Source: Desulfobacterales bacterium
GTDB taxonomy: Bacteria; Desulfobacterota; Desulfobacteria; Desulfobacterales; UBA5616
Assembly: GCA_046483495.1 (NCBI GenBank)
Contig: JAWODC010000028.1
Location: 1-36,626 of the forward strand
Reading direction: 5' to 3'
DNA: 36,626 nucleotides
The notes beneath the pieces are model-generated. The model was not told the origin of the DNA, did no database searches, and saw only the letters and a program-made list of their open reading frames with translations. A program made the translations under genes and the position numbers. Position 1 is the first letter of the stretch, and each line of letters opens with the position of its first letter. Positions 2 to 36,626 of this stretch are shown here, piece after piece.

Positions 2-277
2 GAAAGGCGCTATGAGCTGAAAACCCGGGGATATGATCTGGATGCATTGGCCAAACGGGTAGAAGATTTGTTTGAATTGGAATCCGGAGAAATTTATTCT
101 CCGGGCAAATACAAACGGCTGATTAAGCCCAGGAGCGTATTTTGCTACTGGGCGGTTCGTGAATTGGGAATCACGGCAACGGCCTTGGCCAGAAAGTTGG
201 GCCTGAGCCAACCCGGGGTCAGCAAGTCTGTGGTAAGGGGTCAGGAAATCGTCGAAGAGCTTGAAACCGAGTTCTAA
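2..277 (+). CDS. 3' end (partial) of a probable REP-associated tyrosine (Y1/RAYT-like) transposase; C-terminal DnaA-C-like HTH
   Basis: Frame is open from base 2 (ERRYELKTRGYDLDALAKRV...). RSVFCYWAVRELG...LARKLGLSQPGVSKSVVRG resembles the C-terminal HTH of long Y1 transposases. The catalytic HUH domain is outside the window. Confidence 0.7.
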   Translation, partial: ERRYELKTRGYDLDALAKRVEDLFELESGEIYSPGKYKRLIKPRSVFCYWAVRELGITATALARKLGLSQPGVSKSVVRGQEIVEELETEF

Positions 278-287
278 CTCCAAGTTG

Positions 288-872
288 TTATTTCATGGAC
301 GCTACCTGCCCTTGTGCCTTGGATTTAAACGTTATGGAAGGGGCAATAGATTTTTCGTACGTAAATCCCTCCGTCTCCCGTATATCGCCATACTTTACCC
401 GCAACTCATTTAGGGTGCCGGAGTCCAGGGCAAACATGGGACATGCATTTACGCAAACCGGATCTTTGCCCTCCTCAAAACGTTTGAGACATAAATCACA
501 CTTCTGCATTTTGGCGCCTTTTTTCGGGCCGAATGCCGGAACATCATAAGGACAAGCACTTTTGCAATAGGCATTGCAATCTTTATTGCCCAAGCATACA
601 TCACGGTCCACCACCACAATGCCATCCTCATCCCTTTTTGAAATAGCCCCCACAGGGCAGGCATTCACACAGGCAGGATTTTCGCAATGAAGGCAGGGCA
701 TTGCAAGATACGCCCTAAACAGATCCGGAAAAGCGCCTTTCGTGATGGATACGATCTGAATCCAATCCTCAGGTTCCCCGCCAATTTCCGTTTCGTGCCA
801 ATCCTTGCAGGCAATCACACATGTATAACACCCGGTGCAGCGTGTTTGATCAAAATAAAAACCCCGTTGCAT
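288..872 (-). CDS. dmsB: 4Fe-4S dicluster protein, DMSO reductase subunit B-like
   Basis: CTGCYTCVIAC, CLHCENPACVNACP and KCDLC...PVCVNACP motifs; directly follows the molybdoenzyme gene. Confidence 0.85.
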   Translation of the reverse strand: MQRGFYFDQTRCTGCYTCVIACKDWHETEIGGEPEDWIQIVSITKGAFPDLFRAYLAMPCLHCENPACVNACPVGAISKRDEDGIVVVDRDVCLGNKDCNAYCKSACPYDVPAFGPKKGAKMQKCDLCLKRFEEGKDPVCVNACPMFALDSGTLNELRVKYGDIRETEGFTYEKSIAPSITFKSKAQGQVASMK

Positions 873-19208: not shown

Positions 19209-19243
19209 TCCGTTAGACACTCCGATCGACCTTGTGCTTTATC

Positions 19244-19388: not shown

Positions 19389-19424
19389 ATTTATACATGT
19401 GATGCATAAAAAAGGGAGATACCC

Positions 19425-20429
19425 ATGGCGAACCATGAAGAAAATGAACGGCTGGTCGAGCGATATATGCAGGAAAACAACATCGAAGCGGCCGTCAATC
19501 TGCTGTTCGATCTGATCGTTTCGTCTGCAGGGTCGGGGAATATCTCAAAAGCCAAAATCTTGCGGGAAAAACTTCTCGAGGTTGCCCCCCTGGCGTTGAC
19601 GGAAATAACAAAGGCAGCGGACATCATTGAAGAAGAAGAGTCCAAACTGCTGGACCCGGCCCACTTGAGCACCTGGTCTAAGTTATACAGCACCCTTACG
19701 ACAGAGGAGACCCATGCCCTATTTTTCGCCATGGAACCTGCCGAATACAAAGAAGGGGAAACGGTGTATGTACAGGGTGAGAAAAATGCCAGGCTTTATT
19801 TTATCGACCGGGGCCGGTTGAAACGGGTCTATCGAAAGGAAGAAGAGGATTTTCTTGTAAACGAGTTTGGCCCGGGTGATCTTTCAGGCAAAGACTCTTT
19901 TTTTTCGATTACCAACGCCAATGCCGCCTCCTTGATTGCGGTTTCCGGCGTGAAATTGAGAATACTGCACAATAAAGTGCTGAAAGAATGGGGCACGATT
20001 CACCCGGGGCTTTTCTCGAAACTGCATGATTTTTGTACAAGAGCCGGGAAAACCGATGACGTTTTCACAAAATTGAACATCGATCGGAAGATGCAGAAAA
20101 GGTTCGAAATTTCCGTCAACGGCAAATTCCAGCTCTTGAAAAACACCGGTGAACCCTTGGGAGACCCTTTTAAAGGCACCCTTTCTGACATTTCCTCAGG
20201 GGGATTGTGTTTTTTTATGAGAGTTTCAAGACGGGAAACGGCGCGCCTGTTGGTGGACAGGAAAATAAAAATGGAAATTCAGATCCCGACCAAACAGGGT
20301 GTGTTGAATATCGAAAAAAACGGCATCATTGTCGGTGTCCACGAGTATGCGTTTCAGGACTATTCCATACATGTCAAATTCGACCAGGAGCTTGGCAAAA
20401 ATATAACCGATCTATTTGAAGAATTCTAA
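19425..20429 (+). CDS. Cyclic nucleotide-binding domain + PilZ domain protein
   Basis: GETVYVQGE...LYFIDRG...GPGDLSG cNMP fold; RKMQKRF...DISSGG PilZ-like motifs. Confidence 0.8.
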   Translation: MANHEENERLVERYMQENNIEAAVNLLFDLIVSSAGSGNISKAKILREKLLEVAPLALTEITKAADIIEEEESKLLDPAHLSTWSKLYSTLTTEETHALFFAMEPAEYKEGETVYVQGEKNARLYFIDRGRLKRVYRKEEEDFLVNEFGPGDLSGKDSFFSITNANAASLIAVSGVKLRILHNKVLKEWGTIHPGLFSKLHDFCTRAGKTDDVFTKLNIDRKMQKRFEISVNGKFQLLKNTGEPLGDPFKGTLSDISSGGLCFFMRVSRRETARLLVDRKIKMEIQIPTKQGVLNIEKNGIIVGVHEYAFQDYSIHVKFDQELGKNITDLFEEF

Positions 20430-20513
20430 AAGAATGGGCAATCGTGGTGGCGTAACTGAAAAACGGTCTTAAACGCATGCAGTATCACAAAACCAGGTTC
20501 ACATTGAAGATCT

Positions 20514-21263
20514 ATGATAATATCGGAGAGGGTTTCAATGGATGAGGATAAATTGAGGTCGATGCTGCTGGAAGATGCGGCACTTAGGCCGGTCGAGGCA
20601 AATATCTACTCGGTTTTGCCGAACGATGAAACCGGCAATGCCTATGACAGCCGGTTCGGGTTTATATATGACATGGTGGCATGCAATTCCATCTATAACC
20701 GGCTGATCTGGGGATATTCGGTGGACATATTCCGTCGTATGGCGAATGATGCGCTTCGATCTTCATCCGAAGGCAATGTGCTGGATCTGGCCTGCGGTTC
20801 CCTTGCATTTACTGCCAAAGCCTACAGCCGATATGGCGACCGGCCCGTGATCCTGATGGATCAGTCGCTCAAAATGCTAAGGATCGCAAAATCCAGGCTG
20901 ACAGCACAAGGCGGCAGCCTTGCTGGAAATCTAGTGTTTCTTCATTCAGATGCATCCTGTCTCCCGTTTAAAGAAAACGCATTCACTACAATTCTTTCAG
21001 AAAATCTGCTGCACTGCCTCGATGATACGACGCCGCTGCTGAACCAGCTGAAAACCATTTTAGCGGGCAACGGAAAAATATTTTTTACGACCCTGGTAAA
21101 AAACGGCCGTTGGGCTGACATATACCTTCAGGCATTGGCAGCCGGCGGCAAGTTGATTTCGAGATCCGAGGACGACCACAAAGAGATTTTCAGGGGGGTC
21201 GGCCTGGCCGCAAAGTATGAGACGATCGGCAATCTTTTGTCGATCGAATGCGAACCCCAATAA
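20514..21263 (+). CDS. Class I SAM-dependent methyltransferase
   Basis: VLDLACGS, DQSLKML, DASCLPF. Alternative start at 20538. Confidence 0.85.
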   Translation: MIISERVSMDEDKLRSMLLEDAALRPVEANIYSVLPNDETGNAYDSRFGFIYDMVACNSIYNRLIWGYSVDIFRRMANDALRSSSEGNVLDLACGSLAFTAKAYSRYGDRPVILMDQSLKMLRIAKSRLTAQGGSLAGNLVFLHSDASCLPFKENAFTTILSENLLHCLDDTTPLLNQLKTILAGNGKIFFTTLVKNGRWADIYLQALAAGGKLISRSEDDHKEIFRGVGLAAKYETIGNLLSIECEPQ

Positions 21264-21338
21264 TATCGGCGCAAGGCCTTCTTCACCTGATGAGAAAAGC
21301 GCCAAGAACCGGTAATGAACCTTGCCTTGTCCCGGGAG

Positions 21339-21923
21339 ATGAAAAAGCAGCCGACCATCGAAACGAAACGCTTGATTCTCCGGCCCTTTGCCGTCACCGA
21401 TGCCGCGGATGTCCAGCGGCTGGCCGGTGACCGGGCCATAGCGGATACGACTGTCAATGTCCCGCATCCCTATGAGGACGGTTTTGCCGAATCCTGGATC
21501 GGCACCCATCGATTGAATTTCGACAACGGCACGGACGTTCACTTCGCGATCACGATTAAACCTGACGGCCAACTTGTCGGCGCAATCAGTTTGATGGGAA
21601 TGGTCTCCGGGCATCAGGCCGAACTGGGATACTGGATCGGGAAGCCTTACTGGAACCGGGGATACTGCACAGAGGCAAGCTGTGCTGTACTGGCGCACGC
21701 CTTTTCAAAGCTGGGCCTGATTCGGGTTCATGCATGCCATTTTGCTGGAAACCCGGCATCCGGCCGCGTTTTGCAGAAGATCGGCATGGCATACGAGGGA
21801 TGCCGTCGGCATCACGTCCGGAAATGGGACAAGCCGGTAAACCTCGAGATGTACGGAATCCTTGAAGCGGAATGGTTCGGATCGTACAACGCATTCACCG
21901 GTGATGGGGATCAGCGCGACTGA
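21339..21923 (+). CDS. GNAT N-acetyltransferase, RimJ/RimL family
   Basis: ETKRLILRPF, AELGYWIGKPYWNRGY.TEA, NPASGRVLQKIGM; GGGAG RBS. Confidence 0.92.
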   Translation: MKKQPTIETKRLILRPFAVTDAADVQRLAGDRAIADTTVNVPHPYEDGFAESWIGTHRLNFDNGTDVHFAITIKPDGQLVGAISLMGMVSGHQAELGYWIGKPYWNRGYCTEASCAVLAHAFSKLGLIRVHACHFAGNPASGRVLQKIGMAYEGCRRHHVRKWDKPVNLEMYGILEAEWFGSYNAFTGDGDQRD

Positions 21924-22018
21924 GTTCGATCCCTTGCGCCAGGTTTAATGTGAAAAGGCGTACCATTGAATATCTATGAATACTTATCTGCGAACCCTTC
22001 CAATCAAGGAGGAAGCAC

Positions 22019-22549
22019 ATGCCTTATGAAAAGCTGATGCAGCCGGTCAACATGAACCTGATTTCAGTGACACAACGCCTGAAAGTAGCGGAAGTAACCA
22101 TCGATGACATTGATTTGTTGTATCAATTGACGGGGAATAAAGATGTGATGAGGTACTTTCCGAAAATACTGAGCTATGATGAAACCAAACAAATGATCCG
22201 CAAAATTCTGGATCATTACAAGAAATACGGATATTGCTTTTGGAAAGTCTTGTTAAAACCAAAGGATGAATTTATAGGTATTGCCGGTCTGCTTCATCAA
22301 AAGATTGATGGTAAAGTGGAGACAGAGATCGCTTTTCGAATTAGTCCGGAACATTGGAACAATGATTATGCAACCGAGGCGGCCAAGGCATGCAAGGACT
22401 ATGGTGAAACTGTCTTGAGGAAAAAGAAATTCATCTCATTGATTCATCCCAAGAATAACGCCTCTAAACGGGTAGCGCAAAAACTCGGAGCCAAAAGATC
22501 AAGATCAGTAATATTCATGGGGCATGAACACGAGGTCTATGTTTATTAG
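22019..22549 (+). CDS. GNAT N-acetyltransferase, RimJ/RimL family
   Basis: FIGIAGL, EIAF...HWNNDYATEAA, ISLIHPKNNAS.RVAQKLG. Confidence 0.9.
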   Translation: MPYEKLMQPVNMNLISVTQRLKVAEVTIDDIDLLYQLTGNKDVMRYFPKILSYDETKQMIRKILDHYKKYGYCFWKVLLKPKDEFIGIAGLLHQKIDGKVETEIAFRISPEHWNNDYATEAAKACKDYGETVLRKKKFISLIHPKNNASKRVAQKLGAKRSRSVIFMGHEHEVYVY

Positions 22550-22611
22550 ACATAACCTTGCAGTCCAAGGGACAGCAAGGGCCGAGCCGCTATGAAAAAT
22601 AGTGCGTAAAC

Positions 22612-22676
22612 ATATAACCACCGCCCCCACGCGGACCCCGCAAAAAGTGCGGGTCCGGTGAGGCGGAACGTTAGCA
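22612..22676 (+). repeat. Integron attC site
   Basis: ATATAAC...GTTAGCA enclosing an imperfect palindrome CCGCCCCCAC-G-CGGACCCCGCA / TGCGGGTCCG-GTGAGGCGG with an extrahelical G; 65 bp. Confidence 0.75.
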
Positions 22677-22721
22677 TTCGATCGACAGCCCTATTCTTGC
22701 CTGGCTAAGGAGTAATGGTCA

Positions 22722-23072
22722 ATGAACGGCAGCAATTTGTATCGGCCTACCGAACAGTTTGCAAAAAAATTGGAGAAGGTAAAGCAATCCGACCCTCTTG
22801 GTTATAAACGGATCCTAAAGGTTGTGGAACGCCTGATCGCAGAACCTGACGAGGCAGATGGTAAAATGCATGGGCTTTATCAGGGACGTTACAAAAAATA
22901 TGTGGGCAGGAAGGATTACCGGGTCATTTATTATTGGTGCAAATTGTGTCGCAAAGAGAACCGTCGATTGGAAAAAGAATGCAATGATTGTCAGATCATT
23001 CCAGACAATAGCGTAATCTTCTTTGACCTTTATCATAAAAATGAAATGAAAAAATTCAAGAAAAACAGTTAA
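22722..23072 (+). CDS. Hypothetical basic protein, RelE/ParE-like fold with CxxC...CxxC insert; integron cassette ORF
   Basis: TEQFAKKLEK...VGRKDYRVIY...VIFFDLYHK pattern; TAAGGAG RBS; flanked by attC cores. Confidence 0.6.
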   Translation: MNGSNLYRPTEQFAKKLEKVKQSDPLGYKRILKVVERLIAEPDEADGKMHGLYQGRYKKYVGRKDYRVIYYWCKLCRKENRRLEKECNDCQIIPDNSVIFFDLYHKNEMKKFKKNS

Positions 23073-23095
23073 AGGAACTTAATCCTGACGAAAAG

Positions 23096-23144
23096 TGCCA
23101 ACATTGGGAATTCAGCCGACGAAAAAAACCGCGCAACGTTCATG
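23096..23144 (+). repeat. Internally deleted attC remnant
   Basis: TGCCAAC...ATTCAGCCGACGAAAAAAACCGCGC...GTT with the right arm missing. TGCCAAC matches the reverse complement of the upstream GTTAGCA at 6/7. Confidence 0.55.
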
Positions 23145-23222
23145 ATTAAAATGGATCAAGGAGCGAACGAAAAATGTATATATTACCAGCATGGAGTCAT
23201 AAAGAACAGTCGGAGGTTTAAC

Positions 23223-23594
23223 GTGTCCTCAAAGAAAGCCGGCAACATCAAGGGGAGTGTGGCAGAGGCAATTCGTATACGGAAAGAACGAGAAAAAAGT
23301 TATCGGGAACGTGCTCTCAAAATGTTTCCCAAAATTTGCGCGCGGTGCGGAAGAGAATTCAGCGGAAAGCATTTGCGTGAGCTCACAGTACACCATAAAG
23401 ATCACAATCATGACAATAATCCTCCTGATGGAAGCAACTGGGAGCTTTTGTGCATTTATTGTCACGAAAATGAACATACACGTCAACAGGTTGCCGATGC
23501 TTATGCTGGAAAGCCCGGCGATGAATACCCGGATGATAGCTTAATGCATAGTCCTTTTGCAGAATTAGCGGACTTAATAAAAAATAAGAAATAG
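23223..23594 (+). CDS. yajD: YajD family HNH nuclease
   Basis: YRERALKMFP.IC.RCGREF...LRELTVHHKDHNHDNNPPDGSNWELLC.YCH.NEH; GTG start after GGAGG. Confidence 0.88.
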   Translation: MSSKKAGNIKGSVAEAIRIRKEREKSYRERALKMFPKICARCGREFSGKHLRELTVHHKDHNHDNNPPDGSNWELLCIYCHENEHTRQQVADAYAGKPGDEYPDDSLMHSPFAELADLIKNKK

Positions 23595-23687
23595 ATTTAC
23601 AAAAAGGTCCGGTATTTGGCGGTTCTGAAGTGCTGTCGTTAATGATGTTCTATGTATCCTTTAAACCGAGTTCGAGCGAGGATTACC

Positions 23688-24509
23688 ATGAAAATTCTAC
23701 TGTGTTATTTCAGTGCCACCGGAAACACGGCTACCATTGCCAAAGCCATTGGGACCCGCTTACAGATACTTGGGGCCGATGTGGATACCAGGGACATGAC
23801 GATTGCCTCCGCACGCGAGAAAAATTTGGATCCGGCGTCCTGCCAGGCAGCCGTATTCGGATCGCCCATTCACTCCATGCGGTCACCACGGGTGTTCCGG
23901 GAATGGTTGGCCAAGCTGGATGGAAACGGCATGAAATGCGCCATGTTTTTTACTTACGGCGGGTTTCAGGTTCACCCGACTCATTCCACAACATGTGAAA
24001 TATTGGAAAAGAGCAACTTCAAAGTTGTGGCATCGGCCGAATTCCTGGGAGCCCATACGTTCAACCTGGGCGGCTTTCAGGCAATGGCGGACAGACCCGA
24101 TGATTCCGATCTGGCTGTGGCCGAGGAATACGCAGATCGTATATACGACCGTTTCACGGGCAAGGATCCGGGTAAGGTCAAGGATTTGGACCCCGGGCCG
24201 TATACGGAAACGGAACTCGACAATTTTGAAAATTTCCGGTTTATGGCCGTGAATAAGCTGCCCACTCGCGATGGAGCCGAATGCCGGATGTGCATGCTGT
24301 GCGAAGAAATGTGCCCCACCGGCGCAATGGATGCGGAAATCGGTGATGTGGACAAGGACAAGTGCATAGTTTGCCTGCGGTGCGTCAAGGATTGCCCGGA
24401 CGAGGTCCTGGTGATTAATGACCTTACACCGATTTTTCAGAAAAAAATGGAGGCGGATAAGGAAACGCCGGATACGTTGAGGGCGAAGAAAAGCAAGATG
24501 TATTTGTAG
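23688..24509 (+). CDS. EFR1-family flavodoxin-ferredoxin fusion
   Basis: YFSATGNT flavodoxin loop; CRMCMLCEEMCP and CIVCLRCVKDCP. Confidence 0.88.
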   Translation: MKILLCYFSATGNTATIAKAIGTRLQILGADVDTRDMTIASAREKNLDPASCQAAVFGSPIHSMRSPRVFREWLAKLDGNGMKCAMFFTYGGFQVHPTHSTTCEILEKSNFKVVASAEFLGAHTFNLGGFQAMADRPDDSDLAVAEEYADRIYDRFTGKDPGKVKDLDPGPYTETELDNFENFRFMAVNKLPTRDGAECRMCMLCEEMCPTGAMDAEIGDVDKDKCIVCLRCVKDCPDEVLVINDLTPIFQKKMEADKETPDTLRAKKSKMYL

Positions 24510-24578
24510 ATGAGAAGCGGGAGCTGTCAAACATGCTCGTCTCGCTCCTTCCGCGCGTCGTGTGCTCACTCTATCCAT

Positions 24579-24767
24579 TCACAAAAGCAGATGCCTTCCG
24601 GATCCGCACCCAACGTCCAGTATGCTGGAACAGGCTTCCAGGTGTTTCACAAGGGGCTCCAGAAACGAAGACGGATCGATGGTGAAGGTCCTGCGGTGAT
24701 ATTCGAGAAAATTTCTCTGATAAAGGTCACCGTCTGTTTGTGGATCTGCCGGATGTTCGACGGTCAT
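24579..24767 (-). pseudogene. Truncated class I SAM methyltransferase
   Basis: Ends just after motif I (ILDVGCGSGR) at 62 aa. Confidence 0.75.
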
Positions 24768-24828
24768 GGCTTTGCCTTTCAGGTCTATTTGCCTTTCTGT
24801 CGAGATTTTTTAAAGTCTATAGGACTTT

Positions 24829-24855
24829 GGGGACCTTCGTGCAGAAAGTGCAGAG
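24829..24855 (+). repeat. Left-type element end GGGGACCTTCGTGCAGAAAGTGC
   Basis: Near-identical to 32106-32127. Confidence 0.8.
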
Positions 24856-24923
24856 GAAATTGACAGGATCCTCTTCGCCCCTGAATGCGTTCTATTCTTC
24901 ATTATTCCCAAATTAAAAAATCC

Positions 24924-25267
24924 TCAGATATTGCTCATGCGCGGGTCCGCTTTTCGCTCCAGTGCACTGCGGTCCCAATCGGCGAGATCGGCCTCTGCTT
25001 GATAGGTACTCTGCAAGAAATCCAACAGCACGGTATCGGGTTCGCCGGCCGTCCGCACGGCTTCGTAAGGCAATATGAATTCTCTGAGCTCCTTGTGGTA
25101 ATAGGCGGCTTCCGGTTGAACGGCAAACTCGCCAAAGCCGACCGGTTCCGGATAGGCATATGCATAAAAGGCAGCCTCGCCCAAGCCTGCACCCGGCCAG
25201 AAACCGGCGCTTGAAATTGCCACTGATCCAGTGGCAACCTCGGCCATGGTTCGTTTTTTATGGTCAT
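24924..25267 (-). pseudogene. DUF5996-family gene with a large internal deletion
   Basis: N-terminal MTIKNEPWPRLPLDQWQ is joined out of frame to C-terminal SSAGFWPG...AFYAYAYPEP.GF...EFILPYEAVR...FLQSTY...WDRSALE. Confidence 0.72.
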
Positions 25268-25403
25268 CCCATTTCCCTTTTTTTCTATTGGTTATAGGGA
25301 AAATATGAGATTAGTTTTCAACAACGTCAATGGTTTTTTTTGGAGATATTGCCCCTTCCTGCAGGTATCTTCTCAACGTTGCGCGAGATGTCCCGGCCAA
25401 TTA

Positions 25404-25463
25404 AGCAGTTTCTGACCTGCAAAAAAATCAAGTGAAGTGATAGCAGGGTCGCTTATCAGATCG
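25404..25463 (+). repeat. ~60-bp imperfect direct repeat, copy 1
   Basis: AGCA.TTCTG.CCT.CAAAA.AAATCAA.TGAAG.TGATAGCAG.GTCGCTTA.C.GATCG, shared with 27884-27945. Confidence 0.75.
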
Positions 25464-25466
25464 TTT

Positions 25467-26699
25467 TTATTTAAAACATTCGGTTATTTTCAACCTCTGA
25501 TCGATATCCTTGCCGATATTTTCGGCATCCTTTTCCGGAACATTATAATTATGGAAGACTTCGGGCCATTTCGATACAGCCCTGTGTGTCTCGGCAATGA
25601 TTTCCATTGACAGTTGACGCTTTTTTATCCCAAAATGTTTTGCCTCGGCAAGAAGCGTTTCAGCATTCGGCGGCCGGGTATCCAGGCCGATTCGGAGAAC
25701 GTGTTCCCGGTAAAATCCGATGTTCGGCACTAAATCGAAGGCGGGGCTCAGGCGCCAACCGTTGTCGTCGTGCAGCATGATGAAGTTTTTCAGATGATCG
25801 TCGGTATTGCCGATCATGGTATTGAATACCATCTGTCGGTAAATTCTGTTTAGATCACGTTTTGGTTGTGATGAAATGTGCTTAATTACGTCCGTCAGGT
25901 CCTTGTATCCCGCATTGTAATAGCCATCAGCCTTGAGCAGTGAGTGCATGCTGATCAAGTGATTGCGGCCGCCGGCTTCGTTGATGTCGAAACGCTTCAC
26001 CAGCAGACATTTTAGTGCTGCACCCAGGGGGATCAAAAGGGTATCGGCTGTTTCGATTCCTGACATGCGACCCAGTTCCATAGATGCGGCCTCGAGACTT
26101 ACCACGTCCAACCGGTCTTTGTGACCGGCAAACTTTGCCAGGTATGCTTCCTTTTCGTCATTCACGAGTGCCTTGGGGCGGGCGCCGCCCGGTGAACTGC
26201 CTGCTTGAAACAACAAAAAGAGTTCATTGTCGGATACAGTTGCGGGCTCCCTTTCGAACTGTTGTGCAAGCAATGCCAGCTCCTGTAGATGCTCGTTGGA
26301 AACCCCGGTTGTTTTCACTTCAGGCCTGCCTACCTCGACGTAACTCAAGGCCCCCAAGCCCTGGTTGCCCAGCAACTTCAATAAATGGGGAACACGCTGC
26401 TCGGTGCGGCCCAGCTTATGGCGGCGGATCATGAGCTTACGTCCCCAGTCATCGGGCAGGCTGTCTTCAAAAACACCATGAATACCTTCACGCGGCCGGT
26501 TCGCTTCAAAGACTTCTGTGGACAATGACAAGTGAAGGGGATCAAGCGGGAAAGCTCGCGGGTGCCCCAGGTACTCGGATGTGTAGCGAAACTGTCCCTG
26601 CAACTCCCCTTTGACAGGATCGGGGTCTCCGACAACCAGAGAGCCGGTCTTAACGCTTTCTCCTGATGGTAGGGTCAGCCAAACATCGAGTCGAATCAT
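25467..26699 (-). CDS. hipA: HipA family kinase toxin
   Basis: DSLPDDWGR, GSSPGGARPK, LLVKRFD, GNTDDHLKNF, LSPAFDL. Confidence 0.93.
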   Translation of the reverse strand: MIRLDVWLTLPSGESVKTGSLVVGDPDPVKGELQGQFRYTSEYLGHPRAFPLDPLHLSLSTEVFEANRPREGIHGVFEDSLPDDWGRKLMIRRHKLGRTEQRVPHLLKLLGNQGLGALSYVEVGRPEVKTTGVSNEHLQELALLAQQFEREPATVSDNELFLLFQAGSSPGGARPKALVNDEKEAYLAKFAGHKDRLDVVSLEAASMELGRMSGIETADTLLIPLGAALKCLLVKRFDINEAGGRNHLISMHSLLKADGYYNAGYKDLTDVIKHISSQPKRDLNRIYRQMVFNTMIGNTDDHLKNFIMLHDDNGWRLSPAFDLVPNIGFYREHVLRIGLDTRPPNAETLLAEAKHFGIKKRQLSMEIIAETHRAVSKWPEVFHNYNVPEKDAENIGKDIDQRLKITECFK

Positions 26700-27010
26700 A
26701 TCTTTCTCTTTCGTTTGCCGCCGGCCCTTTGACGTTTACTGCTTTTTTTCTCGAACTCAGCAAACAGGTCTTCCTTCTCGGCCAGTATATTTTTCCAATC
26801 GTCGAGCCTGCCGAGAATGCTGCTCGCAGCCAACCAGTTGCCGATCATGGTCTGTAAAGAGCCTTTTTCCATCAGGCTGTAAGACTGGCGGGTCAGGCCG
26901 ATTCGCTGAGCGAACAGCTCCTGGCTTTCGTTCCGAGACAGGCGCGCCTCTTTCAACCGTTGTCCGAGTTGTTTCAAAAGCGACTCGATATCGATATTAT
27001 CGTTAAACAT
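26696..27010 (-). CDS. XRE HTH protein, HipB-like antitoxin
   Basis: LGQRLKEARL...SQ..FAQRIGLTRQSYS.MEKG; ATGA overlap with hipA. Confidence 0.85.
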   Translation of the reverse strand: MFNDNIDIESLLKQLGQRLKEARLSRNESQELFAQRIGLTRQSYSLMEKGSLQTMIGNWLAASSILGRLDDWKNILAEKEDLFAEFEKKSSKRQRAGGKRKRKI

Positions 27011-27153
27011 ATTTTACCTTATATATCTAATTACGATACAATGTAAAGTATTTTTTACTTATAAAATTGGGCGTGCCGTCGAAAAGTGATTGGGAATGAA
27101 TTTTTTACAGGGACATGGGTCTGTAGCCGTCCAAACTAATGTCGTGGATATAA

Positions 27154-27501
27154 TTACTTATTATCCTGAAGAATTTGTTTGATCTTTTCCTTTAAAATCG
27201 GGATATCATCCCTTGCCGTCAACCAAACCGTATCAATATCAACACCAAAATAATCATGTATTAATTTATCCCTCATTCCTGAAATGTCCTACCAAGGTAT
27301 TTCAGGATACTCTGAACGTAATTCCTTAGAAACCCGTTTTGTCGCTTCTCCAATAATTTCGATTTGACGAATAACACCATCTTGAAGAAGAGGATTTCGA
27401 CCGAAGTCAACGGGCGTGATTCCCTGCAAATAAAAATCTATACGGTCGCAGGCATCACGAATGTGGTTCAGATATAATGTATTATCCCGCTTCTGCTTCA
27501 T
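27154..27501 (-). pseudogene. hepT: HepT/DUF86 HEPN ribonuclease toxin interrupted by one amber codon
   Basis: EIIGEA...PEIPW*(TAG 27289-27291)DISGMRDKLIHDYFGVD...; frame continues to TAA at 27154. The RX4HXY motif lies after the stop. Confidence 0.85.
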
Positions 27502-27775
27502 AGATGACTGTAAGTTCCTTAAGTATTCTGTCCTTTAGGTATGGACTAATGGCGCCTTCGGTTATCAAATCCACTTTTTTGCCAAGAGCTTCGGTAAGAT
27601 TTCTTTCGAGCTTCACAAGGGAGAGAAGGCTTTTGGGTTTGGACAATTGTACTAATAGATCGATATCGCTGGATTCTGTGGCCTCACCCCGGGACCTTGA
27701 TCCAAACAGCCCTATTCGGGAAATATCATTTTTCCTGCAAATATCTATGATTTTATCTTGATCGGCTTTATTCAT
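27482..27775 (-). CDS. mntA: Minimal nucleotidyltransferase antitoxin (MntA family)
   Basis: LFGSRSRGEA...SDIDLLV and LGKKVDL; overlaps the HEPN gene. Confidence 0.9.
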   Translation of the reverse strand: MNKADQDKIIDICRKNDISRIGLFGSRSRGEATESSDIDLLVQLSKPKSLLSLVKLERNLTEALGKKVDLITEGAISPYLKDRILKELTVIYEAEAG

Positions 27776-27883
27776 AACCTTTGTCCGATAACTGTAAATG
27801 GCATGGCTCGGGTATCCTGCCGCAGTTGGCTGATTTCATCAGTGGCATGAAAGTTGATCTATATCAATATCTTGGAAAAACAT

Positions 27884-27945
27884 AGCAATTCTGCCCTACA
27901 AAACAAATCAAATGAAGTTTGATAGCAGAGTCGCTTACCGGATCG
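27884..27945 (+). repeat. ~60-bp imperfect direct repeat, copy 2
   Basis: Matches 25404-25463. Confidence 0.75.
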
Positions 27946-27954
27946 CTGAAATTG

Positions 27955-28002
27955 TGAATGCTCTGCACGAACGTCCCCTATCTTGGACGTCCCCTATCTT
28001 GG
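27955..28002 (+). repeat. Right-type element end plus 16-bp tandem duplication
   Basis: TGAATGCTCTGCACGAACGTCCCC; (ACGTCCCCTATCTTGG)x2 at 27971-28002. Confidence 0.85.
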
Positions 28003-28003
28003 A

Positions 28004-30703
28004 TCAGGGACGCCTTTTTGAAAGTTTTCGGGACAAAAGCTTGTCGGCCTCCACCACCACCAGAACCGAGAAAGCCAGACCAAGGCACATGGCAAGTTCA
28101 GTGGGGGATAGCGGCACGGTGCGCAGCAGCCATTCCATTTGGGGTACATAAAGAGCGGCGAGCTGGGCCGTCAGGGCAAGACCCACCGCAATGAAGAGAA
28201 AGGGGTTGTGCAGGTGATTCATGGCGAAAACCGAGCGCCGCAGGGACCGGGAGTTGAAAAGCTGTACAAACTGAAATGTCACCAGGCTGGTCAGGGCCAG
28301 TGTCCGGGCATGCTGGAGGCTTGCCCCCCCACCCAGCGCATGATGAAATAAAAACAGGGTCCCCCCGGCCAGCGTGAGGCCTACCAGGACAATGCGCCGA
28401 AGCAGAACGGACGTCAGGATGCCTTCTTCCGGAGGCCGGGGCGGCTGATCCAGAATTCCGGGTTCCCCTCGTTCAAAAGCCAGCGACACATCCTGGAGGG
28501 CCGATGTTACAAAGTTGAGCCAGATAATCTGGGTAGCATTGAGGGGCAGGGGCATGCCCAGAAACATGGTGCCTAAAATGGCCATGAGAATGCCGATTCC
28601 TCCTCCCAGGAGATAGAGGGTGACTTTCCGGATGTTTTCAAAAACGATGCGGCCCTCTTCAACCGCATGAAAAATCGAAGCAAAATTGTCGTCGACCAGA
28701 ACCATGTCCGAGGCTTCCTTGGCCACATCCGTACCGGTTTTGCCCATGCTGATGCCGATGTGCGCGGCCTTCAGGGCGGGGGCATCGTTGACACCGTCCC
28801 CGGTCATGGCCACAATCTCGCCTCCGGCCATGTAAGCCTGGGCGATACGGAGCTTGTGTCTGGGGGACACCCGGGCAAAAACCGACACCTCTCTTACGTG
28901 CTCCTCCAATTCCGTATCGCTGAAGTTTTCGACTTCACGGCCTGTCAGGGCTTTCGGGTGCTCTCCCCCGATGCCGATCCGGGCTGCAATGGCCGTGGCC
29001 GTTACCATATGGTCGCCGGTGATCATCACCGTTCGGATTCCTGCTTCGGCACAACCCCGAACCGCCTCGGCCGCTTCGGCTCGGGGTGGATCGATGATGG
29101 CGGCCAGACCGGCAAAAGTGACTCCATGGGCAAGCTCTTCGGTGAGGCCTTCAAAAGACAACCCCGGCTGCAGCTCTTTCCAGCCCAGGGCCAAAACCCT
29201 CAGTCCTTCTTTCGCAAGCTGATCGGCTGCGAAAAGCACTTCATCATGGCCGCATTCCACCTGAGACCGTTCCATGGCACAGATATCCAGGAGCTTCTCC
29301 GGTCCGCCTTTGAGAAAGACGATATCCCGGTCATTGTGCTTGTGCAGACTCGCCATATAGCCTCTTTGGGATTCAAAGGGAATGATGGCCGCAGTTGGCC
29401 AGGCTCTGCGCTCCTGTTCGGCATCCAAGCCCGCTTTATAGGCCGCCACAATCAGAGCCGCTTCGGTGGGATCTCCCTTTATCTCATGCCGGTCTCCAAG
29501 CCATTGGATACTGGATTCCGTGCAGAGCAGACCAATGCGAAGGGCCGTTTCCAAATCCGATCCGGGTTCGAACTCGAAATGGGTTCCGGAATCTCTTTCC
29601 GAAAACGTTCCTCTTAATTCATAACCGCTGCCGCTGACATCGAAATAACGGCCCATGGAGAACATTGCCCGAACCGTCATCTCATTCCGTGTCAGGGTGC
29701 CGGTCTTGTCCGTGCAGATCACCGTTGTGGAGCCCAGGGTTTCAACAGCATGGAGCTTTCGAAGAATGGCGTTGCGCCGGACCATTCGGGAAACGCCGAT
29801 GGCCATGGTGATGGTCACCACAACGGGAAGGCCTTCGGGTATGATGGCAACGGCCATGGCCACCGCCGTCATGAACAGGTCCATTGTTTCCATGCCTATG
29901 AAAAACCCGAACCCGAAAACGAAAACCGCAAGTGCCAGAACCGCCAGCCCCAGCCGCCCGGCGAACCGCTCAAAACGCTCCTGGAGTGGCGTTTTGACAA
30001 TGGTCACCGTTCGGACATCTTCCGCAATCTGCCCCATGAGAGTATCTGCACCGGTGGCCGTAACCACCCCCAGTGCCCTGCCGCTCACCACCACCGTGGA
30101 CATATAGGCCAGGTTGGAACGGTCCCCGGGTGGAAGTTCGGGGTCTTCGAGGGGTTTGATATGCTTATCTGCAGGAACCGATTCCCCGGTGAGGGCCGCT
30201 TCTTCAATTTTCAGCTCGGTTGCCGAAAGCAGCCGGATATCCGCCGGCACCCGGTCTCCGGATGCCAGCATCACCACATCGCCGGGTACCAGGGCCTCGC
30301 TGTCGATCTCGTTCTCCCTGCCGTTTCTTAAAACCCATGCCCTGGCTTTGACCAGTTGCTGAAGCGATCGCATGGACCGTTCGGCCCGGAACTCCTGCCA
30401 GAACCCGATGGCCGAGTTGATGATGATGACCGCCAGAATGACCGCTGCGTCCTTGAAATGACCGACAGCGGCCTTGACCGCCACTGCCGTAAAGAGAATG
30501 TAAATCAGCGGATTTTTCACCTGTTCCAATAGGATCTTAAGCCGGCTGATGGGTATCTCCTCGCCCAGTGAGTTGGCTCCGAAAACCGCCATACGCTGTT
30601 CGGCCGTTTTCGGGTCAAGGCCCTGCTCGCTGGTTTCCAGACGCTCCAGCACTTCTTCCGGTGTCATGGTATGCCAGGCAATACCGGAAATGTTTTTTTC
30701 CAT
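28004..30703 (-). CDS. Cation-transporting P-type ATPase (type IIA, Ca2+-ATPase-like)
   Basis: LTGES, IPEGL, DKTGTLT, MITGD, MTGDGVNDAPALK; multiple TM segments. Confidence 0.95.
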   Translation of the reverse strand: MEKNISGIAWHTMTPEEVLERLETSEQGLDPKTAEQRMAVFGANSLGEEIPISRLKILLEQVKNPLIYILFTAVAVKAAVGHFKDAAVILAVIIINSAIGFWQEFRAERSMRSLQQLVKARAWVLRNGRENEIDSEALVPGDVVMLASGDRVPADIRLLSATELKIEEAALTGESVPADKHIKPLEDPELPPGDRSNLAYMSTVVVSGRALGVVTATGADTLMGQIAEDVRTVTIVKTPLQERFERFAGRLGLAVLALAVFVFGFGFFIGMETMDLFMTAVAMAVAIIPEGLPVVVTITMAIGVSRMVRRNAILRKLHAVETLGSTTVICTDKTGTLTRNEMTVRAMFSMGRYFDVSGSGYELRGTFSERDSGTHFEFEPGSDLETALRIGLLCTESSIQWLGDRHEIKGDPTEAALIVAAYKAGLDAEQERRAWPTAAIIPFESQRGYMASLHKHNDRDIVFLKGGPEKLLDICAMERSQVECGHDEVLFAADQLAKEGLRVLALGWKELQPGLSFEGLTEELAHGVTFAGLAAIIDPPRAEAAEAVRGCAEAGIRTVMITGDHMVTATAIAARIGIGGEHPKALTGREVENFSDTELEEHVREVSVFARVSPRHKLRIAQAYMAGGEIVAMTGDGVNDAPALKAAHIGISMGKTGTDVAKEASDMVLVDDNFASIFHAVEEGRIVFENIRKVTLYLLGGGIGILMAILGTMFLGMPLPLNATQIIWLNFVTSALQDVSLAFERGEPGILDQPPRPPEEGILTSVLLRRIVLVGLTLAGGTLFLFHHALGGGASLQHARTLALTSLVTFQFVQLFNSRSLRRSVFAMNHLHNPFLFIAVGLALTAQLAALYVPQMEWLLRTVPLSPTELAMCLGLAFSVLVVVEADKLLSRKLSKRRP

Positions 30704-31143
30704 TACCCCCTCGATTGTTGATCCCTATCCGCCCTGCATTTTTGGAAGGTCGCGGCCGGGAGCCTGTTTTGGGTCTTCAGGTCGGAACAGACCATCAGTA
30801 TTTGGTCTTTCCGGTTCGTATCCGGCTTTGAATAACTCCACAGCATAACGTCTTTTGCAAATTTTAGCAGAGATTGCTTTTTTTTGGCACCGAATAATTG
30901 CATGGGCGACCATTCGCAGCAGCAACTGCTTGTCTTGGGGGCGGCCGGAGGAAGGCTGCTGATTTGCGGATACTCGGCGAAGGCGCTTTTGTCGAGCAGA
31001 CCATTTCCGATCTTGACTCCCCATTGAAAAACAACGTAAGACTATCGGGACAAAAGGATTGACATAAAGAGGCTTGCCGGAAAGGGTCGCTGACCATCCG
31101 GCATCTTCATCGTCGCGCTCCGGTGATCATTTCATTGATTTTA

Positions 31144-31168
31144 TGAATGCTCTGCACGAACGTCCCCT
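31144..31168 (+). repeat. Right-type element end, 25-bp perfect copy of 27955-27979
   Basis: TGAATGCTCTGCACGAACGTCCCCT. Confidence 0.88.
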
Positions 31169-31381
31169 GACGGGTTGCCCAGGATCAGCACATCGATTCC
31201 CTCTTTCTGCATAGACTGCCTGACTTTTTCTGCATTTTTCCTGAAGAAAGAATAGTGCATTTTCCGCTTTCCTCTCTTTTTGAATCGCTTCGAAGCGTTT
31301 CAGTACATATGCCGGGCCGCCCCGGCGCCGTGTCTCGCTTGTTCATTTATATAACCATACATGCCATCGCTGATTCTTTAA

Positions 31382-31430
31382 AGTATTTCGAGGATTAAAA
31401 TTTTCCGGCTAACGAAGAAATGGAGTGAAT
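31382..31430 (-). mobile_element. Partial inverted copy of the 19244-19388 MITE
   Basis: Reverse complement ATTCACTCCATTTCTTCGTTAGCCGGAAAATTTTAATCCTCGAAATACT matches 19266-19314. Confidence 0.65.
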
Positions 31431-31435
31431 CAGGA

Positions 31436-31831
31436 CTACGTCGTTCCATAAAGGCCCCGGCCGAGCATCTTTACCTGCCCCTGTTTTTTCAGCCTGGAGA
31501 TGAGGTTCTGGACTTTCTTACTGTCAAATCCGGTTTTTCTCATTAGTTGTGATTTGCTGATTCCATTTTCTGTCCCTTCAATAATCTTCAGCACTTTGCC
31601 TATCGCCGATTCTTTGGCCGATTTTGCAGATCTGGATTTGCTTTTTTCGGTTTTTTTTGCCGGGGAATGCTTATTAGAGGATTTTTTGACTTTTTCCTTT
31701 GGTCCAGGTTTGGATTTGGTTTCCGGTTCGGATGTTTCCAGCTGGTTGACCACCGCGACCATTCTGTTCAGGATTTCTGCAATCTTTTCCAACTCTTTGT
31801 TTAATTGTCGCAACTCTTTTCTAAAAGTCAT
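31436..31831 (-). CDS. Lys-rich hypothetical protein with a C-terminal winged-HTH-like domain
   Basis: N-terminal coiled coil, K/S-rich linker, VLKII...GISKSQLMRKTGFDSKKVQNLISRLKKQG.V...GRGLY. Confidence 0.7.
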   Translation of the reverse strand: MTFRKELRQLNKELEKIAEILNRMVAVVNQLETSEPETKSKPGPKEKVKKSSNKHSPAKKTEKSKSRSAKSAKESAIGKVLKIIEGTENGISKSQLMRKTGFDSKKVQNLISRLKKQGQVKMLGRGLYGTT

Positions 31832-32105
31832 ATTCAGGTCCTTTCTATATTTGTTTTTTTATATCTCCTTGCACTTGCCCGTCTGAATACAGAAGACTTT
31901 ATTTGTTGGAAGAAACTAACATTTTTTTGTGAGTACCCCCTCCGTTTTTTTTTTACAGAATTGGGAATCATTGGGGATTGAAAATTATGTAGAGAATGAA
32001 TTGGAAATCCTCTTAACATGTGAAGGGAAAATGGACAAATGCTTTTTTTGCGGAGGTTTGGGTATAATTAAAAGCGTCGGGTACAATCTATGCTGACACA
32101 TAATA

Positions 32106-32209
32106 GGGACGTTCGTGCAGAAAGTGCGGAGAACCGGATTTACAAGGCGGGACTTAATTTGGGAATGTTCTGCACGAACGTCCCCAACTAGGACCGTCCC
32201 CAACTAGGA
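32106..32209. mobile_element. Minimal 80-bp element with inverted ends (32106-32185) followed by a tandem duplication
   Basis: GGGACGTTCGTGCAGAA (32106-32122) / TTCTGCACGAACGTCCC (32168-32184) form a perfect 17-bp IR; CGTCCCCAACTAGGA at 32179 and 32195. Confidence 0.8.
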
Positions 32210-35200
32210 ACTGTAAACCACCTCAAGAACCGGCAGTTCCCATTCGTTGGCTTTGATCCATTTTTGAAAGTCTTCATCGGGATCATTGCGATCCCGCCTA
32301 AGCATTGCCACGACCCGAACATCCAGGATGTGATCCAGCCTGTCGATCCATTTGTTCGAACCCTCGTTGGACAATCGGGCCAGGCATGGGCTGTTATGGT
32401 TGTAAACGCCCAATTTCCCGTTGTGCTTGCGCAGCGAAACGGACTGACCTGCCTGCAGCGCAGCCAAATGACGGTGAATGGCGTCCGATTGCGGAAATCG
32501 GGCTGCATAATCCAGGTAGATTTCGTTCAACCCAAGCAGCTCGTATCTTCTTGGGCGGTGCTCTTTGGCATACATTGGTTTTCGGTATGCGAGGGGCAAG
32601 GCAAAATCGCCCTTGATTTCAGGCAAGAACGGGTTGGGTCTTTTCGGGATCCGCAAAATCCGCAATGTTTCCCCGGCCCGTGTAATGCCCACATACATGA
32701 CGCGCCGTTCTTCTTCCCATTGCGGGATGTCGGTGGGCCTGCCCCAGTCCCCGTCGAGAATGAACACATGGGGGAACTCCATGCCCTTGGCCGAATGAAT
32801 GGTGCTTAAGAATACGCCCTGGCCGATCACTTTTTCCCGGCGCTGATCCGATATGAACTCATACAACCGGTCGATGGCCATGCCGGCCGGCAGCATGCTG
32901 TCGACGGTCTCTTCCCGATAGCTTTCCAGGAAAAGGCGAATCAGGTCCAACCATACATTAGTCTCATGCCCCTCCCAAAGCGCACCGATTGCTCTTCTGA
33001 TGTTGCTTGCCCGCAAGTGCTCCTTTTCTCTTTTCTCCAGCCAGTCCAGGGACAGGCGAATCTCCCGCACCCGGTGCAGCGGAAGGGATTCGTCCAGCGT
33101 CATTTTGATCGGATATCCGGCGTCCTCGAAAAGAGCCCTGACAGCAGTTAAAGGTGCTTTGGTTCGGGACAGTACGGCCATATCAGACCAGCCGATCTTC
33201 GGATCGATATCCTTCAAACGATCGATTTCATCTTGAACATAGAGCGCCTGATGATGCATATTCCCAATGGATACGATCTGGACCCGCCCTTTGCTCACCG
33301 GATCCAAATGCTCCCATTTTCCGCCGGGAAGATTCATTTCCCGGTCGCGGTTTATGCGTATGGGATGTGCACCTTTCATTCGGTCCTTATTGGCGCGGAT
33401 CAGGGCGTTCGAAGCGGAAATGATGTGCCTGCCGGAACGGTAGTTTTCGACCAGATAGACTACGTTTTTGCTGTAATCGTCCTGGAACTGCCGAATGAAG
33501 CGGACATTGGCGCCCCGAAAGGTGTAGATGTTCTGGTCGTCGTCGCCGACGGCCAATATGGAAAGGCGGGCATCTTCCTCCGAAAGCGTCCGGCCGGCAA
33601 TCGCCGATACCAGCTGATACTGATCCTCGTCGATGTCCTGATATTCATCCACCAGGATGTGGCTGTAGCCGGCCAGCAGGCGGTCACGGTGTTCGTCCGG
33701 TTCGATGCCGGGGATTTCCGTTTCGCCGTTCAGCAGCTTGACCGCGTCTTTGATGATGCGTTCAAAATCGATCCGGTCTTTGTCGGGCGCTGCAGCCATG
33801 TCGCGAATCGAAATGCCGGCAAGTCGCATGGCAACGCCGTGGTAGGTCGCGACCGTTACGCCTGCGGCCGCCTTTCCCACCAGGGCGTGAAGCCGCTTGC
33901 GAAGCACCATGGCCGAACTGTGATTGAAACAGAGCACAAGGATCTGCCCCGCCGGAACCCGTTCCACCTCCAGAAGATAGGCGCAGCGGTGTGCGATTAC
34001 GGTGGTTTTGCCCGATCCGGGACCGGCCAGAATAAGCATGCTGTCTTCTACGGGACTCCCTACGGCGGATATCTGCACCGGGTTGCGCAAATTTTCAACG
34101 AGGATGCGATAGGATTCAGCAGTGGTGGCTTTTTCCAGCAGCTCGGTTTCTCCATCGAAGTACTTGTTGATGAACTTGACGCGGCCCAGGGCGAAGTAAT
34201 CCAGAACCAACGTGAGCGCACGGGCGATCTTTTCAAGCCCGAGGGTCGCATAGTGCATCATGACGTGAACCTGAAACCGCCGTTCCCGATAGTGAACCGA
34301 AAGGGGCTTGTAATCGCCTTGGTTGTAATAGCGGCCCCGGGCCGTCGGCGCCAGGCGAATGGTCATCGCCTGCCTGAGAATCGCCAACCCGTTCTTCAGC
34401 TCGATCACATGGTGTTCATGGAGGAACAGGAGGGCGCGCTCGATTGCCGGCAAAACCTTTTTGACTTCTACACTCAGAATCAAATCCGATTTGAGGGCGG
34501 CCGACAATTCGTCGCTGGTAAAGGACAGATGAACATCTCCGGTGATTTCAGCGTTGGATTTTGCGGCCTCTTTTTTGGCCGCCTTGATGAGCGTTTGCAG
34601 AATCAGGCGGGCGACGCCCTGCCTCAGCGAAATGGTCTTGAGAATGGTCTGCCAATTGCGTTTCAGCCGGATTTGATACCGGTTCCGATCCACGTGACCG
34701 ATCTCGAAGCTGCCCGTCGATGCTGCAAATCCCTTGCCGTCGTATGATATGCTCTTTATCAACCGCCGCAGGACATCCGGGCCGGCGGTGTATCCCTTGT
34801 TCGTCATCTTTTGATTGAGACGGCGGATGTCCAGCTCCACCCAGTTGCCTTCATCGGCATTGGGGTCCTCGACACGGAGAAGCTCAATGAGCTTGTTTTC
34901 AAGTTCGCACACCGCCTCAAAGGTCTTGGCGGCATTGTTTTTGCCCTTTGGCCGAAAGGTCGCCGACATCATGAGGCCCTGATCCAGCAAACCGGCCTCC
35001 GCCATGTCATGCAGCGCCTTTATCACGATTTGTGCGGCGGTGAGCCCGGCTTCTCGCTCCATTTCCAGCAGCAGCTCTTTTTCCGGAAACAGCGCTTCTG
35101 CAAGTGCATCGGCCCGCAATCCGGTTTTTCGCCCGCTGTTGATGATTTGCTGAAGTATATTGAGCCACAGGCTGCGGGTTTGCGGACTTAAGTTGAACCG

Positions 35201-36462
35201 TTCCATTATGGACGCGGCCTCTTCCAGGGAGTCGACCAGCGGTTTTCCCTGAAAGGCCTCGGTCAAATTCAGGTTGCGCTCCAGAAAGCCTGCCCGCTCC
35301 AGCCATGCAACGGCGGTTCTTATCCTGGTGTCCCTGAATTCGGGTTTCAGGGCCTTCATGTCGGCCAGGTCTTCATCCCGCAGCAGTTCGTCGCCGGTGG
35401 CCACGATTTCGCCGTACGGGTTCTTTTTCTTTCGCCGCAAAGCCCGCAAAATGCGCGCGATTTCCTTCTGTTTTAACTCGGACAATGCCCCCATGGCAAA
35501 TTGCAGATGAATATCCCGGGGATCGTAGAGAAGAATGCAGCGCGCCGGTTTTTGATCCCGTCCCGCGCGTCCGGCCTCCTGAATGTAATTTTCCAGCGAA
35601 CCCGGAATATGGTAGTGCAGGACCAGGCGGATGTTCTCCTTGTCGATTCCCATGCCGAAGGCATTGGTGGCGCATATGACAGGGATTTGGCCGTCCACGA
35701 AACCCTCGATAGTGTCCCGCTTTTCCATGGCATCCAGCCCGCCGTGAAATATTTCTGCAACGTGGCCTTGATGGTGGAGAAAATCCCGTATTTCCTCCGT
35801 TGCATGCCGGGTGGCGGCGTAAACGATGATTCCCCCGGGCTCATCAGCGGTGTCGAGATGTTCTTTGATGAGTTCATGGGTGCGCTCCAGTTTTTCCGCC
35901 GTTGACACCGGAATGACTTCAAACGAGAGGTTTTCCCGCCCCACCCCACCGGCAAAAACCTGCAGTTGCTGTCCGAGCTCCTCACGAAAGTGGGTTTCGA
36001 TTTCATCGATGACGCTCGTTTTCGCGGTGGCGGTAAAACAGCTGATCGGCGGCGCCGGCAAACCCTGTTCCTTGGCGAATTCCCGGATAAAGCGGGCGGC
36101 GTAAAGATAATCCGGCCTGAAATCATGTCCCCACTTGGACAGGCAATGCGCTTCATCGAATACCCAGCAGCCGATCTCGCGCTGGTTGAGAATGTTTCGA
36201 ACGCCGGTGCTCCGAAGCTGCTCAGGCGACATGTACAGGATTGCGGTGTCCCCCAAACGGACCCGTTCGAAAACCTCGCCGCGTTAGGGCAGACTTTGCA
36301 GTCCGGAAATCGCCTCGGCAAACAGCGTGCCGGTCTTTCCGCCCAGGTTCTCCACCCGATCCTTCATCAGGGCCTGCAACGGCGAGATCACGATTGTCAA
36401 TACCCCGCGCCGCCGATACCGCACAAGGGCCGGCAGCTGGTAGCAAAGCGATTTGCCGCCGC
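32204..36462 (-). pseudogene. RecQ-family helicase fused to a UvrD/Rep helicase; 5'-truncated, with an in-frame TAA at 36284-36286
   Basis: [57 protein letters not shown]; then AGPGSGKT, LVDEYQD, VGDDDQNIY.FRGA, TIHSAKGMEF, EERR.MYVGITRA. ORFs 36284-36472 and 32204-36256 share one frame. Confidence 0.88.
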
Positions 36463-36626
36463 ATTGTTTCAATCCACTCTTCTTTTCTAATAGCAGCAGA
36501 GCCTATAACTATAGCTTTAGCACCACACTTTAATAATCTATTCGCATATTCATAGCTGTTTATCCCGCCTGCAACTTGTAATTTATTGGGAAACTGTTTG
36601 ACAAGATTTATCAACAAGTTCCTATT
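36463..36626 (-). other. AT-rich fragment of a HisA/HisF-type TIM-barrel gene abutting recQ
   Basis: [32 protein letters not shown] pattern; abrupt drop in GC content. Confidence 0.7.

Follow-up and report, generated by a model that had tools for sequence, protein, structure and literature searches.

Y1 transposase genes lying between long inverted repeats have been named TIRYTs, and the elements formed by them TIRtrons (Di Nocera et al. 2013, PMC3733652). In the available text of that paper a RAYT-like tyrosine transposase gene has long terminal inverted repeats (TIRs) on both sides, at about 55–60 bp, and the repeats, which have a G-rich head, also occur as a small dispersed family with dimers. 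TIRYTs form subclass 2.1 of the TnpA-Y1 enzymes, with the role of the C-terminal domain left open (Quentin et al. 2018, PMC6006769), and Group 1 RAYTs are given as the most IS-like (Bertels et al., PMC5581495). Here, a 36,626-nt contig of a Desulfobacterales bacterium (the window; the whole of contig C53 in the 4.19 Mb source genome, G000) was analysed, in which an earlier note had seen five oriented copies of one terminus and had proposed an undescribed family of elements carrying cargo genes between two ends. The feature is real and RAYT-linked, it has a known architecture, and it is unlikely to be a two-ended cargo system. Judged by sequence comparison, the five motifs are TIRs of a TIRtron/TIRYT, and we give a probability of about 0.7 to the reading that they are TIRtron ends and that the miniature element, truncated copy and lone ends of the window arose when the enzyme cut and rejoined DNA near the repeats.

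The 17-mer end motif was found at 24829 (+), 27962 (−), 31151 (−), 32105 (+) and 32169 (−) with 0–1 mismatch, against a mean of 0.07 and a maximum of 1 copies in 100 shuffles, so the five copies stand, as do the subterminal AAAGTGC of the left-type and GAATG(C/T) of the right-type ends. A RAYT-like HUH/Y1 gene, long flanking TIRs and repeats dispersed as singles, dimers and clusters are all present, and this is the architecture of the TIRtron in the available text of PMC3733652; the system is not an undescribed one. The head here, GGGGACGT, fits 6/8 positions of GGGGWSAS, missing the last two, which does not exclude a TIRtron because, in the text available, that head belongs to some but not all TIRtrons and the other TIRs are unrelated (PMC3733652). 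The present repeat could be listed in the figures or supplements of that paper. The likeness to subclass 2.1, described in the accessible text as a Y1 core with a C-terminal Bac_DnaA_C-like helix-turn-helix (HTH) and no REP hairpins (PMC6006769), is one of domain architecture, the C-terminal Bac_DnaA_C/HTH extension being present.

A full-length element was identified on a second contig of the genome (C94:36594-37669; 1,076 bp), where a left and a right end surround one gene of 332 aa. Its protein contains Y1_Tnp (PF01797, above cut-off) and Bac_DnaA_C (PF08299, 31.6 bits, residues 259-308), and reaches 70.7 bits against NF047646 REP_Tyr_transpos, below the cut-off of 80. The HUH residues H60 and H62 and the tyrosine at the catalytic position, Y119, are invariant in 30–31 aligned homologues. 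Together with 10 further full-length pairs, this copy places full-length Y1 genes between these ends in this and other genomes, and it supports a RAYT-like Y1 enzyme as the likely mobiliser. The gene that the earlier note had named for this role, a Y1 transposase tail at the window start (2..300, + strand), is the wrong copy: it belongs to another subfamily, shares 28% identity with the C94 protein over 64 residues and carries the decayed end of a third repeat type, so that it probably does not mobilise these ends, the cognate gene being that on C94.

The source genome holds 15 motif copies with ≤1 mismatch (5 on C53, 9 on C94 and 1 on C88), and C94 additionally carries four short pairs of 79–225 bp, three of which retain pieces of the gene. 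A profile scan gave 26 matches in the genome against 5 in the reversed genome, including seven further unpaired ends on C3, C23, C33, C50 (two), C67 and C88. No match was obtained in Rfam or in a sequence search of the PDB. Relatives of the gene are present in 115/301 genomes of the class. A separate repeat, with miniature elements (minis) of its own, accompanies the second intact Y1 gene of the genome, on C18; this second TIRtron family (G000:C18:10512-11601) shows one head duplication of the kind described below, and further sites of it lie at C25:3027-3223, C18:121115-121314, C89:5881-6400, C91:4645-5184 and C50:4273 and 6657. A Fic gene in the window is also flanked by an 81% direct repeat (4900-5038 and 6417-6554), and part of this repeat resembles a promoter with the initial codons of a further Y1 element.

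One mini, one truncated TIRtron copy and two lone ends make up the inventory of the window. The mini (32106..32184, + strand, 79 bp) joins the initial 22 bp of the full element (21/22) to its final 29 bp (26/29), with an interior of about 47 bp, as the earlier note had roughly measured, and is thus a non-autonomous derivative formed by internal deletion. It folds with a 17-bp stem, the single ends folding weakly (−0.8 to −2.5 kcal/mol), and a 92% identical copy with different flanks is found at C94:2479-2557. At its right end a head duplication of period 16 (32179..32209; 6 nt of repeat and 9 nt of flank) overlaps the recQ-uvrD stop codon, and this end with its duplication is reproduced in a contig of a second study with 0 differences over 32118-32287. 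The truncated TIRtron (30938..31166, + strand), which ends in a right-type repeat (core 31151-31166), corresponds to full-element positions of about 689-883 joined to the last 38 bp. The first reading overlooked that 30938-31122 is what is left of a cognate Y1 transposase gene (DNA identity 76%; 60% for residues 213-250); since this remnant sits immediately inside the end at 31166, that end is part of its own truncated element. No left end of this copy was detected, a decayed one near 30860 giving no profile match.

The two lone ends were located by motif and profile scan. The left-type end at 24830..24851 (+ strand, 1 mismatch) is preceded by an outer tag of 7–8 nt, deduced from the point where similarity to a paralogue at 13945-14074 stops, and its interior past the repeat matches no other element end. 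The right-type end at 27956..27977 (− strand) bears a head duplication in which a 16-bp unit, 6 nt of repeat head and 10 nt of outside flank, is present twice (27972..28003) and which terminates at the stop codon of an ATPase gene. A headless copy without terminal repeat (25410..25463, − strand), 84% identical to the 57 bp just inside the 27977 end, abuts the hipA stop codon.

Compared with RAYT/REPIN and TnpA-REP/BIME systems, the likeness lies in a HUH single-strand enzyme serving gene-less, hairpin-forming miniatures, in cleavage whose distance from the bound site varies, and in the rolling-circle-like model of tandem amplification (available text of PMC3333891 and PMC5581495). Unlike REPINs, the ends here are 22-bp inverted repeats and not GTAG-tagged hairpins, copy number is 15–30 and not hundreds, and each genome holds multiple copies and fragments of the gene-bearing element. 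MITEs and the Tn3-derived TIMEs are likewise short gene-less derivatives keeping both ends, but their movement depends on DDE transposases and leaves target duplications. HUH chemistry without target duplication is known from IS200/IS605 (IS608) and IS91/ISCR, where IS200/IS605 ends are subterminal hairpins and not inverted repeats, and IS91 has a Y2 enzyme, ori/ter ends and one-ended capture of neighbouring DNA, which the lone ends with foreign pieces found here resemble.

The association of the motif with the enzyme gene was assessed across genomes. The exact 16-mer occurs in 26/301 genomes of the class and the reversed control in none. Among the best 150 protein matches (106 more lie beyond them), 10 other genomes have a gene copy of ≥65% identity, and the motif is present in 9/10 of these against 16/290 others, the genomes being kin and not independent; an association with RAYT-type genes, which the earlier note had proposed, was thus found. 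Genes of ≥65% identity (n=11, query included) have a left end in 10 cases and a right end in 7, and 11/20 genes further removed carry different paired repeats, again with a GGGAC head. A motif scan of a genome collection, covering 8 of its 64 parts, returned Y1 sequence in 23/125 loci (L010 included, some overlapping), many of the others being chance matches or having 300-bp flanks. Named records bearing the full end signature come mostly from Desulfobacterota-type genomes.

Adjacent inward-facing pairs of ends (n=37) were made up of 20 minis (53–225 bp), 3 deleted copies, 11 full elements (1,076–1,127 bp) and 3 longer pairs. Direct repeats at the flanks were seen in 1/37 against a shuffled mean of 0.95, i.e. 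there is no target duplication. Lone ends were the commonest state: among 252 ends (196 callable), 88 were lone without transposase sequence and 27 lone with a fragment of it, 49 lay in minis and 32 in gene-bearing pairs. Head duplications, a tandem copy of 6–15 nt of outside flank plus the first 4–29 nt of the repeat, were present at 27/259 ends, two of the 27 lying in the window. Their inner breakpoint falls just after GGGACG in 10/27, the flank length has its mode at 7, and in the source genome they occur at 3/1,692 GGGACG sites, all three of which are element ends. Outside the repeat, near-identical copies at different sites have between 0 and about 10 nt in common; for the C53 and C94 minis this is 10 nt on the left and 7 on the right. 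Inside the repeats an 8–9-bp periodicity was observed, with z 6.7 at period 8 (24 repeats, 12 variants) and period 9 in the C94 family.

In at least five cases a lone end was found at two sites together with 190–480 bp of foreign DNA and a breakpoint at the end (an RHS fragment in L156/L158, a VapC fragment in L319/L321, a DUF433 start in L173, L316/L320 and L312/L324; the RHS, VapC and DUF433 fragments were named by eye from translations). The gene capture put forward in the earlier note has support in a weaker form, as single ends with a few hundred bases, and is not supported for multi-kb two-ended cargo. Head-to-tail stacks of left ends with 5' gene pieces of variable length occur in three genomes (L095, L071, L060). 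Guide-type pairing between outer tag and inner sequence was not seen by eye, and a landing preference behind stop codons was rejected, with 10 in the end-adjacent bin against 7–14 in most others (214 ends). Two further loci were recorded. L173 (G025:C76:2000-12340) is an array of toxin-antitoxin genes in which numerous ends, from at least five GGGGACG-headed repeat families, share one orientation. In L203 (3272-7936; G021:C320) a 2.2-kb unit lies in tandem (99%) between composite minis, in which the end of one repeat variant is 41 bp outside the end of another.

Mobility, end duplications or capture by TIRtrons were not found in the literature searched, with subscription journals mostly outside it, nor were the absent target duplication, the prevalence of lone ends, the head duplications or the lone ends with foreign DNA; the available text of Di Nocera et al. 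has no test of mobility and no mention of duplicated ends, of capture by lone ends or of a lack of target duplication (PMC3733652).

From the junction patterns, each end would be cut at two places, one a little outside it and one a little inside. The C-terminal HTH would bind the two 8–9-bp direct repeats inside each end, which are a candidate site for this domain, and the HUH core would nick single-stranded DNA about 7–10 nt outside the end. A second, looser nick site may lie inside the end, most often just after GGGACG. Joining of the 3'-OH of one site to the 5'-phosphotyrosine of another could then account for the movement of whole elements as well as for internally deleted copies, duplicated heads and lone ends attached to foreign DNA. 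In the accessible text on Escherichia coli TnpA-REP, the enzyme acts on single strands only, cuts CT sites up to at least 400 nt from its binding site and carries out strand transfer, and a rolling-circle-like model is given to explain tandem amplification (PMC3333891); this enzyme is the precedent for the distant cutting of low specificity and the strand transfer proposed here. TIRtrons were named in 2013, and only two works in the literature searched deal with them, with no test, in the available text of either, of whether and how a single-strand HUH enzyme acts on inverted-repeat ends. The junction patterns predict a binding site (the 8–9-bp direct repeats), two nick positions and no target duplication, and with a 79-bp candidate natural substrate and an intact enzyme gene in one genome the TIRYT mechanism is directly testable.

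Several observations weigh against this reading. Past the repeat, the interiors of the lone ends at 24830 and 27977 share nothing with that of the full element. The cut positions were deduced from junctions, and the outer boundary ranges from 0 to about 10 nt. Kinship among the genomes inflates the co-occurrence and periodicity statistics, and the closest full-length copies, in three soil genomes (L211/L212/L213), lie at one orthologous locus, so they are not independent insertions and were withdrawn as such. No biochemistry on the TIRYT subclass was found in the literature searched. The empty-site alleles and circular junctions suggested as a check in the earlier note were not seen in the public-run contigs (four runs on window 20000-36626, four on C94:28500-39000), which are contigs only and of low depth; low cover of 24.4-27.2 kb in run X2 likewise comes from low-depth contigs and is not evidence for absence. 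Nor were empty sites found in five family relatives, which are too distant for the purpose.

The best-surviving rival, itself compatible with TIRtron identity, holds that a single end moved with the DNA inside it, so that 25.4-31.2 kb would be a same-direction stack of multi-kb units: an end with the transposase remnant and the ATPase (3.2 kb), an end with mntA-hepT-hipBA (2.5 kb), and the headless copy with the DUF5996 remnant. The 57-bp repeat at 25410/27889 fits such a second, headless unit. Among neighbouring ends 0.3–8 kb apart without transposase remnant (n=25), direct pairs are the commonest with 15, against 9 outward, inflated by neighbouring intact elements, and 1 inward, that of the window; long pairs are under-sampled because most fetched loci are 3–6 kb. 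The ends found at two places with 190–480 bp of foreign DNA, the left-end stacks with variable 5' gene pieces, and the same-direction ends of several GGGGACG families in the L173 array agree with it as well. However, the copied foreign pieces are <0.5 kb and mostly gene fragments, and no multi-kb unit occurs at two sites except for the tandem triplication between minis in L203, which is explicable by homologous recombination or assembly. Ends are absent from all 29 cargo-homologue loci and not enriched behind stop codons, and islands gather such debris regardless. One-ended stacking is accordingly a tentative possibility for the window. That TIRYT enzymes in general are one-ended gene-capture engines, cutting a little outside one repeat, copying it along with inside DNA of variable length and stacking such units head to tail into toxin-antitoxin and accessory arrays in sulfate-reducer-type bacteria with 25.4-31.2 kb as one such stack, we regard as doubtful; if lone ends did shuttle neighbouring genes, this would be an overlooked route to accessory islands.

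Passive decay of old insertions, through replication slippage and deletions of the usual kind, the enzyme having no further part at the ends, would suit a region rich in broken genes (DUF5996, hepT, a methyltransferase fragment) that gives no direct sign of current activity. It is unlikely in view of the confinement of head duplications to element ends, their preferred inner breakpoint and flank length, and the near-identical minis at different sites.

The model of the earlier note, in which non-autonomous elements enclose kilobases of genes with a left end on one side and a right end on the other, and become larger by nesting, is more improbable still. Its spans of 3.1, 6.3 and 7.4 kb and the names of the enclosed genes are correct, no DDE transposase or recombinase lies inside them, and the ends at 24830 and 27977 do face inward with only accessory genes between, but the long pairings of 24829 with distant right ends are geometric only: 31166 belongs to the truncated element and 32184 to the mini. 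The window pair is the sole inward one among the 25 transposase-free pairs, where 6 would be expected at random (P 0.007). Inward ends also lie 7.4 kb apart in L157 and 2.8 kb apart in L208, and these two of the three longer inward pairs, the third being the window's own, have transposase remnants at their ends. L208 was withdrawn as a cargo element, its gene having its own decayed right end; in the TIRtron of this locus (4942-5345) the left end is separated from the start codon by about 340 additional bases, among them a gene fragment that by eye resembles a four-helix bundle. In 400 relatives hipAB, mntA-hepT and DUF5996 were found separately and never as one unit. An element end was present within the flanks of 0/29 fetched cargo-homologue loci, and homologous hipB-hipA pairs in other genomes had no end. 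The methyltransferase follows none of 14 recQ homologues, contrary to the suggested empty site, and the seven ends on other contigs of the source genome have no partner. DDE elements typically have their left and right ends in inverted orientation, but a DDE insertion sequence, MITE or recombinase site is scarcely credible and was rejected, with a Y1 gene or remnant in 15/15 inward pairs of 301–1,300 bp, direct repeats at chance level and no annotated match to the motif found in plasmids or phages.

The toxin-antitoxin genes and the ATPase are most likely island neighbours and not a unit between a left and a right end. All are on the − strand. The DUF5996 remnant (24935..25267, Pfam PF19459) has about 600 bp deleted internally, the homologue L245 aligning in two pieces. 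It is followed by a hipB-hipA type toxin-antitoxin pair (25467..27010; Pfam HTH_3, Couple_hipA, HipA_C) and a type VII pair (27163..27775, domain searches) of intact mntA and a hepT with one in-frame stop at about 27289. A P-type IIA-like cation ATPase of 899 aa (28004..30703, domain searches) and a 131-aa protein with a C-terminal winged helix (31436..31831), the latter between outward-facing ends, complete the region; homologues of the ATPase 5' end and of the HTH gene were not found at E 1e-25 in 300 genomes. An attC-like hairpin was seen by eye at 22550-22670, after two GNAT genes; an integron reading of the neighbourhood was rejected, as this was the only such hairpin, it had no regex match, and no integron integrase above cut-off was present in the genome.

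Two contigs, overlapping by 264 bp at 98% (window 36199-36462 and G000:C94:270-533), each hold part of the recQ-uvrD gene, and both tips run into unrelated sequence. C53 and C94 are probably adjacent, in which case the two 79-bp minis would flank recQ-uvrD and a PIN-domain gene. An intergenic repeat of about 150 bp at 19240-19390, with a half copy at 31382-31433, has >100 copies in the genome at 70–91% identity and folds as a long imperfect hairpin with no Rfam match. Two truncated copies (88%) of a methyltransferase gene start lie at 24578-24811 and 13945-14056, one of them fused in frame to an HNH nuclease gene. The 5' end of the ATPase gene (30594-30696) has a 93% stray copy at G000:C50:14051-14153, and the HNH (yajD-like) gene at 23212-23595 has a 95% second copy at G000:C33:53119-53502, about 200 bp from a lone end.

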